Part shown: one piece after another, positions 59,255 through 61,429 of the stretch
Layout: the number at the start of each line of letters is the position of its first letter
Numbering within the stretch: the first letter of the stretch is position 1
UHGV virus genome: UHGV-0139776
Direction: 5' to 3' (one strand)
DNA length: 64,000 bases
From: a virus
Notes under the pieces: model-generated
The model's input: only the letters and a program-made list of their open reading frames with translations
Told to the model about the DNA's origin: nothing
The model's database searches: none
Translations under genes and position numbers: made by a program

Positions 59255-59580
59255 TTCCCACCTCCCTTTTTCACCAAACTTGTAAGAACATTCAGAATGC
59301 TATCGATATTCACTCGTTTCATCCCTGAAATCACCTCATGACCGTTATTGCTGGCTATCGTTACCATTAAGTACGTAATTGATAACTCCCAGCCCTCATG
59401 TTGCCCCAATAGGTACGCCACCGCGCCAGCTGTCACTGCAACAAAGATCTCCGTAACCAATCCCAACAAATTGCCAGACTGGCGACCGTCTCGGACATCC
59501 ATCAGGAACGTGCCTATCCCACCAATTACTGAAAGCAGGAGCGCAATAGCAACTGGAGCTAATTCCTGTGTGTCAAGCAC
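59251..59580 (-). CDS. lydA: LydA-like holin
   Basis: 109 aa with three predicted TM segments and charged C-terminus. Confidence 0.55.
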   Translation of the reverse strand: MLDTQELAPVAIALLLSVIGGIGTFLMDVRDGRQSGNLLGLVTEIFVAVTAGAVAYLLGQHEGWELSITYLMVTIASNNGHEVISGMKRVNIDSILNVLTSLVKKGGGK

Positions 59581-59654
59581 AAGTTCCCTCCTACGTTGTC
59601 AGGAGGTAATGGTATGCAAAGTAACTTCTCAACCGGTTATGTTGCATAAGAGAC

Positions 59655-59918
59655 TTACCTATTCAACCGACTTTTGGAACCTTCAATAATAAGCCTGCTA
59701 TTGGCGCTAAAAATAAGAACCATGCAGCTCTGAAGGCTTTCATTCATGTCCTTATATTCCGCGAGATACATGCCAATAAAGCCAGCAAGTACGGCGGAAA
59801 TACATTCGGCCAGCAATTTCTTGCATGAAGACTCGTAACGGTTTTCACATAGCCCACTCAAATACGAATACACCCCACCAAGAAGGGATAACATCACGAT
59901 ATGTACATAAAATGTCAT
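59655..59918 (-). CDS. holin-like small membrane protein
   Basis: 87 aa, two hydrophobic segments, first gene of the operon. Confidence 0.45.
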   Translation of the reverse strand: MTFYVHIVMLSLLGGVYSYLSGLCENRYESSCKKLLAECISAVLAGFIGMYLAEYKDMNESLQSCMVLIFSANSRLIIEGSKSRLNR

Positions 59919-60045
59919 TTTTTACCTATACAACAGTAAGTTGAACAACATTTGAGAACGGTATGCACTTTGTGATTTCCACACACACTGGTTTTGTTAA
60001 TTAAAACCAGTAGCTTGCAATAAATAACGATAGTGGGCAGAAAAT

Positions 60046-60231
60046 ATGCTAATAGGCTATGTACGCATATAGACAAATGAACAAAACACAGCTATGCAGT
60101 GAAAAGCACTTGAAAGCGCAGGATGTGAGCTAATTTTTGCGAATAAGGCGAGCAGCAAAAAGGCTGGGCACCCTGGGTTAAAAAAGGTTCTGCGTATGCT
60201 TTCCAGAGGTGATACCCTAGTCTCGGACTAG
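60046..60231 (+). pseudogene. remnant of a cin/hin-family serine invertase gene
   Basis: reads MLIGYVRI*TNEQNTAMQ*KALESAGCELIF...GLKKVLRMLSRGDTLV then ends; two in-frame stops; about 60% identical to the first 61 codons of the adjacent intact invertase. Confidence 0.7.
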
Positions 60232-60353
60232 GGACAACATTTCGAGGACAGTTTTCATTAGCGGTCAGCAGGCGCTAGATACATCGAATTGATGTGCCGC
60301 GCGATAAATGTACCTATTCTATCAAGATAAATTACACCGACGCGGCATTAGAA

Positions 60354-60926
60354 TTACAGCTCAGATTGAGTTTGGCGCTTCTCTACAGGATGATAACGAT
60401 AAATCGTCGATACACCGATATCGTAAATAATTGCCAACTGTTTCCTGCTGTAGCCATTTTCGATCAACCTCGCTATTTGCTCATGTTGTTCTTTTGTCAA
60501 CTTCGGGCGACGTCCGCCAATGCGTCCCTGTTCGCGTGCAGCTGCCAGTCCGGCCAGTGTTCTCTCAACAATTAATTCACGTTCCATTTCTGCTAAAGCC
60601 CCCATGACGTGAAAAAAGAAACGCCCCATGGGTGTTGATGTGTCAATACTGTCTGTCAGACTACGGAAATTAACACCTTTTTCCCGCAACTCCTCTATAA
60701 GCGTGATAAGGTGTTTCATACTTCTGCCAAGCCTATCCAGCTTCCAGACAACCAGCGTATCTCCTTCTGATAACGTTCTGAGCAGCTTTTTCAAGCCTGG
60801 TCTGGCTGATTTTGTTCCGCTTATTTTATCTTCAAAAATCAGTTCACATCCTGCGCAGTTCAGTGCATTTCTTTGTAAATCTGTGTTTTGGTCATTTGTT
60901 GACACACGAATGTAGCCAATTTGCAT
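60354..60926 (-). CDS. cin: Cin/Min/Hin-family serine DNA invertase
   Basis: MQIGYIRVSTNDQNTDLQRNAL... with catalytic Ser in YIRVS and C-terminal HTH; ATG at 60926 (track start 60935 is TTG). Confidence 0.9.
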   Translation of the reverse strand: MQIGYIRVSTNDQNTDLQRNALNCAGCELIFEDKISGTKSARPGLKKLLRTLSEGDTLVVWKLDRLGRSMKHLITLIEELREKGVNFRSLTDSIDTSTPMGRFFFHVMGALAEMERELIVERTLAGLAAAREQGRIGGRRPKLTKEQHEQIARLIENGYSRKQLAIIYDIGVSTIYRYHPVEKRQTQSEL

Positions 60927-60980
60927 GAAAAACAACCTCTTTGTTTAGTTAAAAATACATCGTTGGTATAGGTAGGGATT

Positions 60981-61006
60981 AAGACTAAAACGTTGGTTTG
61001 GGGGAA
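60981..61006 (+). other. invertase crossover site 1 (cix/mix-like)
   Basis: AAGACTAAAACG-TT-GGTTTGGGGGAA, 12-2-12 hix/gix-like; 55 bp upstream of the invertase start. Confidence 0.75.
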
Positions 61007-61429
61007 GGCTCGGCACTGCCCGTTGGTGTGCCTGTTCCGTGGCCCTCAGCCACACCGCCAGCAGGGTGGCTGAAATGTAACGGCGCAGCATTTTCTTCTG
61101 AAATGTACCCAAATCTGGCAAGGGCTTACCCCACCAATAAATTGCCGGATTTACGCGGTGAGTTTATCCGTGGTTGGGATGATGGGCGTGGAGTGGATAG
61201 TGGGCGCGCGTTATTATCAACTCAAACAGATGAATTTAAATCACATAGTCATTATTTCGAAAGAACATGGGCACAAACTGGATTTGATACAACAGGCGGA
61301 TATTATCTTTTAGCCGCTGATGTTTCTGGCTCAGTAATTCAACAGAGATCGGATAGCACTAACTCGGTGGGGGGGAGAGAATCTCGCCCTCGTAATATTG
61401 CATTTAATTACATCGTAAGAGCGGCATAG
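60998..61429 (+). CDS. tail-fibre C-terminal cassette 1 (no own ATG)
   Basis: conserved N part LPVGVPVPWPSATPP.GWLKCNGAAF and C end RPRNIAFNYIVRAA; tail-collar-domain-like. Confidence 0.7.
   Translation: MGEGSALPVGVPVPWPSATPPAGWLKCNGAAFSSEMYPNLARAYPTNKLPDLRGEFIRGWDDGRGVDSGRALLSTQTDEFKSHSHYFERTWAQTGFDTTGGYYLLAADVSGSVIQQRSDSTNSVGGRESRPRNIAFNYIVRAA

Follow-up and report, generated by a model that had tools for sequence, protein, structure and literature searches.

A truncated cin pseudogene facing a Min-type invertase in a P1-like phage-plasmid

Within the 64,000 nucleotides of the virus genome UHGV-0139776 analysed here (the window), a short cin-like sequence lies beside lydC and faces an intact DNA invertase gene. 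On the basis of sequence and synteny, this stub is a pseudogene descended from a P1-type cin, and it very probably represents the inert promoter region and first 59 codons of a resident cin, left behind when a foreign module replaced the remainder. According to the scenario proposed here, the ancestor would have possessed a resident P1-type cin together with cixL, the C segment and the tail-fibre gene S. A foreign module, in which a Min/Pin-type invertase of opposite orientation accompanies an invertible tail-fibre segment with multiple cassettes, would then have taken the place of cixL, the C segment, the remainder of cin and part of S. Having lost its function, the stub would have drifted neutrally; it makes no recombinase, inversion presumably being carried out by the intact convergent gene, which possesses an enhancer-homologous stretch of its own. 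We infer this order of events; the identity, synteny, truncation point, premature stops, substitution pattern and recurrence on which the account draws are direct observations.

Identity and genomic setting of the stub

The window belongs to a P1-like phage-plasmid in which the darA operon (ddrB, ddrA, darA, hdf, lydB and lydA) and lydC occupy the minus strand up to position 59918. BLAST against phage genomes detected P1 homology, in P1 order and orientation, across lydC, the cin promoter region and the start of cin (59600-60222), and local BLAST placed the P1 block at 59399-60222 with 85.4% identity; the block containing the stub reached E = 2e-137 against P1. The stub holds the position of P1 cin, downstream of lydA-lydC, divergent from lydC and facing the tail-fibre segment. 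A comparison of synteny at the lydA-cin junction, suggested as a check in the original prediction, bore this out, as P1 order and orientation persist through lydC into cin and end at 60222. The lydC region is annotated in related records as LydC or as a phage holin. Matching to the C1-operator consensus returned 13 hits between positions 751 and 50020 of the window, against 0.27 expected by chance; these predicted C1 operators confirm a P1-type immunity network.

The stub aligns with nucleotides 1-177 of P1 cin at 89.3% nucleotide identity without any indel, and 49 of 59 amino acids are shared. Such similarity lies far beyond chance: when P1 cin nt 1-177 was placed at every offset on both strands of the window, 158 of 177 positions matched at the stub and 127 at the intact invertase gene, as opposed to at most 75 elsewhere (median 44). 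Per 177 nt, the stub differs at 18-28 positions from five cin sequences (four intact alleles, those of P1, P7, D6 and pMB4926_2, and the SJ46 stub) and at 59 positions from the intact Min-type gene, and, its own type aside, it finds its best database matches among the cin genes of P1-like elements. A search of Pfam with the stops masked found a Resolvase (PF00239) match at stub residues 3-59, covering profile positions 2-68 of 145 with 37.6 bits, above the gathering cut-off of 23.3 bits for this family. The Resolvase domain is thus incomplete in the stub and HTH_7 is absent, whereas both domains are present in the intact neighbour.

P1 cin, rather than this neighbour, is the informative comparison for the stub. 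Aligned with the intact invertase gene, the stub shows 66.7% nucleotide identity over 177 nt, and an earlier estimate of 61 collinear codons at about 60% identity holds insofar as the alignment is gapless and 37 of 61 amino acids (61%) agree; the homology itself, however, spans 59 codons, and the last 9 nt of the interval first assigned to the remnant (TCG GAC TAG) belong to the junction filler. P1 cin and the intact invertase gene are 71.8% identical over the 177 nt compared. The stub is therefore about as distant from the neighbouring invertase as cin is, which argues that it is not a copy of it.

Table 1. Features of the cin stub and its surroundings in the window
Feature	Position	Strand	Basis or remark
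lydC (holin-like), P1-backbone gene left of the stub	59655..59918	-	87-aa ORF, match to P1 lydC
lydC-cin intergenic region, P1-homologous	59919..60045	+	degraded counterparts of P2cin and P1cin; cin ribosome-binding site
cin pseudogene stub, codons 1-59 of P1-type cin	60046..60222	+	identity to P1 cin, Pfam match
Relic of the cin recombinational enhancer	60064..60135		counterpart of P1 31678-31749, cin nt 19-90, by P1 annotation
In-frame TAG for codon 9	60070..60072	+	TCA (Ser) in comparators
In-frame TGA for codon 19 (Arg)	60100..60102	+	alignment of alleles
12-nt junction filler TCGGACTAGGGA	60223..60234		inverted-repeat search, junction alignments
3' flank of the incoming invertase gene	60235..60353	-	in common with p98222/pSX12-4 type from CAACATT on
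Intact Min/Pin-type DNA invertase, 190 aa from ATG	60354..60926	-	convergent with the stub; Pfam

The intact invertase and the stub lie on opposite strands and converge, as had been claimed (Table 1). The product of the intact gene matches Resolvase with 174 bits in addition to HTH_7 and is named pin or recombinase in related records; by local BLAST, the gene matches cin in reverse orientation only, at 69.6% identity, and its nt 25-95 are identical to the P1 enhancer region at 59 of 71 positions (83%). To its right, tail-fibre C-terminal cassettes are repeated on both strands. Just upstream of the gene, two crossover-site-like sequences (60949-60972 and 60979-61002) are situated 30 bp apart; the inner one is degenerate, being 75% identical to the outer one, and is reminiscent of a pseudo-site in an invertase promoter region.

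The right break, about 0.8 kb past the end of the window, was read in pZ1323CEC0017-3, a plasmid of chicken Escherichia coli that is 99.9% identical to the window at this locus, and in which similarity to P1 picks up again at about P1 37095, within the constant part of S, at 97.4% identity. The intervening gap in P1 homology implies the replacement of approximately P1 31837-37094, an interval that holds cin from its truncation point onwards, cixL, the C segment and part of Sc. Displacement of a resident invertase by an incoming invertase and multi-cassette module, as originally suggested, is supported by the 89.3% identity to cin together with the P1 synteny. The two alternatives then offered, displacement and horizontal acquisition, are one event and not rivals.

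Decay of the gene, its regulatory relics and the junction

Translation of 60046-60240 on the plus strand gives MLIGYVRI*TNEQNTAMQ*KALESAGCELIFANKASSKKAGHPGLKKVLRMLSRGDTLVSD* (asterisks marking stops), which reproduces exactly the reading with two premature stops from which the analysis started; a third stop falls at 60229-60231. Codon 9 is TCA (Ser) in P1, P7, D6, pMB4926_2, SJ46 and the intact neighbour, and TAG in the window; this residue is the catalytic serine of Cin. Codons 60-186 (127 codons) are missing, and with them the remainder of the catalytic domain and the helix-turn-helix that binds DNA. The stub does not provide the reading frame of about 185-195 uninterrupted codons characteristic of a functional invertase. 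With a stop in place of the codon-9 serine, a second stop at codon 19 and the loss of codons 60-186, the stub is dead as a gene. Both stop positions are unchanged in four related records (one phage and three plasmids, from different hosts and countries), and about 147 plasmids in PLSDB contain the whole arrangement at an identity of at least 98.6%.

Fourteen substitutions in the stub are lineage-specific. They are spread over the three codon positions as 5, 4 and 5, ten of them change the amino acid (two nonsense) and four are silent, and none falls within the final 52 nt. Intact cin alleles are 1-18 nt apart, with differences mostly in codons that preserve the amino acid. Read from the alignment, the pattern in the stub indicates neutral decay after inactivation.

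The predicted promoters in the P1-homologous sequence upstream are degraded as well. Window positions 59957-60218 are 90.1% identical, with one gap, to P1 31570-31832, and both of the -10 hexamers predicted in P1 are altered: that of P1cin has changed from TAAAAT to TAAAAC at 60002-60007, losing its final T, and that of P2cin from TATCAT to CAACAT at 59946-59951. Consensus scans found no sigma-70-like promoter site in 59600-61100 and no C1 operator in the interval between lydC and the stub, and the stub region matched no Rfam family. A perfect 9-bp inverted repeat, ACTGGTTTT-N7-AAAACCAGT, covers the predicted P1cin -10 counterpart at 59987-60011; its P1 version is imperfect, and a T at 60009 breaks the repeat in three of four close relatives. 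The 72-nt enhancer counterpart bears 9 of the 14 lineage-specific changes, five of which hit columns that do not vary among six comparators, although the enrichment relative to the remainder of the stub does not reach significance (p = 0.09). One end of the counterpart, GCGCAGGATGTGAGC at 60116-60130, is unchanged, and as a sequence we take it to fit the 15-bp Fis motif. We infer that the promoter and enhancer relics of the stub are probably inactive.

Homology to P1 and cin stops at 60222, directly after CCCTAGTC (60215-60222), and is followed by the 12-nt filler. The last 8 nt of the stub and the filler form a perfect palindrome, CCCTAGTC-tcg-GACTAGGG, at 60215-60233, the core of the filler being an exact inverted copy of the adjacent 8 nt. 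In alignments, the filler was found neither in P1 cin nor in the p98222-type junction. Its palindromic form suggests that folding back or template switching may have occurred where a deletion was joined. An interpretation of 60223-60353 as further decayed cin was rejected, as its local alignment score was no better than that of shuffled controls on either strand. The break at cin nt 177-183 was likewise considered as a quasi-cix crossover site and dismissed; by eye, ATACC-CT-GGTCG bears only a weak resemblance to one, and cin sequence continues past nt 177-183 in both SJ46 and the p98222 type, which speaks against a site-specific joint in these two. The 3' flank of the invertase gene includes a terminator-like hairpin on the minus strand (60348-60334). 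Counted from the alignment, this flank (60235-60353) is about 86% identical to that of p98222, as against 98.8% for the invertase genes, a disparity that points to mosaicism inside the shared module.

Stubs in other lineages and alternative explanations

A 5' cin fragment facing a convergent intact Pin/Min-type invertase, near lydA or lydC, is shared with the window by Salmonella phage SJ46 and by D6-like plasmids. SJ46 has kept cin nt 1-234 as an open frame of 74 codons, of which the first 61 are intact and encode a protein identical to P1 Cin. Its neighbouring gene is a different Pin-type gene, only locally about 75% identical to that of the window, which implies at least two different incoming invertase genes. 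In p98222-contig_6, pSX12-4 and pKFS-D08_2, a D6-like backbone without lydC carries a D6-type cin stub of nt 1-307 with deletions of 2 nt and 9 nt, beside the min gene of the window at 98.8% (p98222, pKFS-D08_2) or 94.8% identity (pSX12-4) and with the same 3' flank. About 17 plasmid records have this p98222-type form, and PGAP annotates the p98222 and pSX12-4 stubs as recombinase pseudogenes that are frameshifted and incomplete. The stub of the window is the shortest and has palindromic filler at its joint. In phage vB_EcoM-673R5 (ON470615.2), the annotation divides the intact invertase between 'Hin1' and 'Hin2', and two single-base deletions in A runs of the stub may be assembly errors. An origin of the distal p98222-type stub from another Din-family gene was also considered and rejected: apart from itself, it matched cin genes of plasmids best, at about 77%, and chromosomal pin genes were nearly absent from the matches, so that this distal part derives from cin.

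In both SJ46 and the p98222 type, decay increases sharply at a step near cin nt 150-183. Unique changes in SJ46 number 1 in 177 nt versus 10 in the 57 nt beyond (p = 3e-6), and those in p98222 number 14 in 177 nt versus 34 in the 130 nt beyond (p = 2e-5). In alignments read by eye, the distal parts of the two have almost no derived states in common.

This gradient bears on whether the stub has been kept for an activity in cis, as a second Fis-dependent enhancer for Min, through control of lydC or by way of an antisense transcript that enters the invertase gene at its 3' end. The stub does extend over the counterpart of the cin enhancer marked in the P1 annotation, one end of this relic and the last 52 nt of the stub are unchanged, and cin 5' stubs have survived beside Pin/Min-type genes in three lineages, in two of which decay is much slighter in the first 150-180 nt than beyond them. 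Moreover, P7 has an operator for lydC, Op(lydC), 5 nt before the cin start codon. Selection for a cis role, whether as an auxiliary Fis-binding enhancer or as a regulator of lydC or of the invertase, might accordingly have maintained the first 150-180 nt of cin stubs, a prospect that the sequences make quite improbable. The enhancer counterpart is in fact the most altered part of the stub in the window, both predicted -10 hexamers are damaged, the interval between lydC and the stub has no counterpart of the P7 operator, and the intact gene has an enhancer-homologous stretch of its own. Nor is the conserved stretch common to the three lineages, as the p98222 type has about six changes where the window has none. 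In view of the altered promoter and enhancer relics and of the scans that returned neither a C1 operator nor an Rfam match, the stub is regarded as inert, with only a slender chance left for a role in cis. As for the gradient, we prefer the explanation that the proximal parts of the stubs have been repeatedly overwritten by homologous recombination with the intact cin of other P1-like elements, whereas the distal end would not be refreshable because homology is lacking beyond it; selection on the proximal part appears less likely than such refreshing.

Two further explanations carry hardly any weight. The collinearity of stub and intact gene over 59 codons, in mutually inverted orientation, would be compatible with a decayed partial inverted duplication of the element's own invertase, yet the stub is much closer to P1 cin than to the intact gene, and the 90 nt upstream of it are also P1 cin promoter sequence, which renders this origin extremely improbable. 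It is just as hard to credit an intact second invertase with stops introduced by sequencing errors, or a chance resemblance, readings for which no supporting observation emerged. The possibility of such errors had been raised in the original prediction and is ruled out by the recurrence of both stops in the four other records and by the absence of the last 127 codons, two thirds of the gene; against chance stand the BLAST E value and the result of the sliding control. A remnant of resident cin left by a module replacement is thus the explanation adopted here, and no observation speaks against it.

Significance and relation to p15B and P1

The stub is of little importance in itself, but, as the scar of a module swap, it allows this exchange in the host-range switch of P1-like phage-plasmids to be dated and located, and it is a handy marker by which P1-like elements of the Min type can be distinguished from those of the Cin type. 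A gap in annotation shows here too: RefSeq (NZ_CP148411.1) has no annotation for the window-type stub, and the SJ46 stub is labelled 'DNA invertase' in its record. The different stub lengths beside at least two incoming invertases provide a modest illustration of mosaic phage-plasmid evolution.

The relic is already on record for p15B, and the module swap has reportedly been published. The p15B swap was reportedly worked out in the early 1990s; Sandmeier et al. (1992) are said to have described Min as the replacement of a Cin-like system in an ancestor of the p15B genome and to have mapped the substitution sites. Our literature search found no paper describing the stub, and papers on P1-like plasmids, on an mcr-1 plasmid and on SJ46 deal with a Min-like segment or with truncated cin of other elements rather than with this relic.

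Relative to cin of P1 and its alleles in P7, D6 and pMB4926_2, the stub is orthologous and is alike in its orientation after lydC and the promoter region. It differs from the intact alleles in retaining only codons 1-59, with two nonsense and eight further amino-acid-changing substitutions, and in being without cixL and the C segment. The closest counterpart is the Min region of p15B from E. coli 15T- (X62121, ECP15BG), which was compared through the notes in the GenBank record of P1. According to that record, P1 31570-31832 is 89% identical, with one gap, to p15B 7147..7408, the enhancer stretch P1 31684-31754 is 83% identical to p15B 6463..6533, in min, and p15B 1..1712 corresponds to P1 37152-38867 at 96% identity. 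The window shows the features of a p15B-type Min substitution, with a left break at about cin nt 173-177, a convergent min and a right break at about P1 37095-37152 in S. The P1 block has the same extent in both elements, at 89% identity in p15B versus 90.1% in the window and with one gap each; in both, 614 nt separate it from the min enhancer block, which is 83% identical to P1. This agreement in block extent, identity and spacing suggests that the stub is the relic present in the p15B Min region. As in p15B, the neighbours are lydA-lydB on the left and, on the right, a tail-fibre segment with multiple cassettes; unlike p15B, the window derives from a modern P1-like phage-plasmid.
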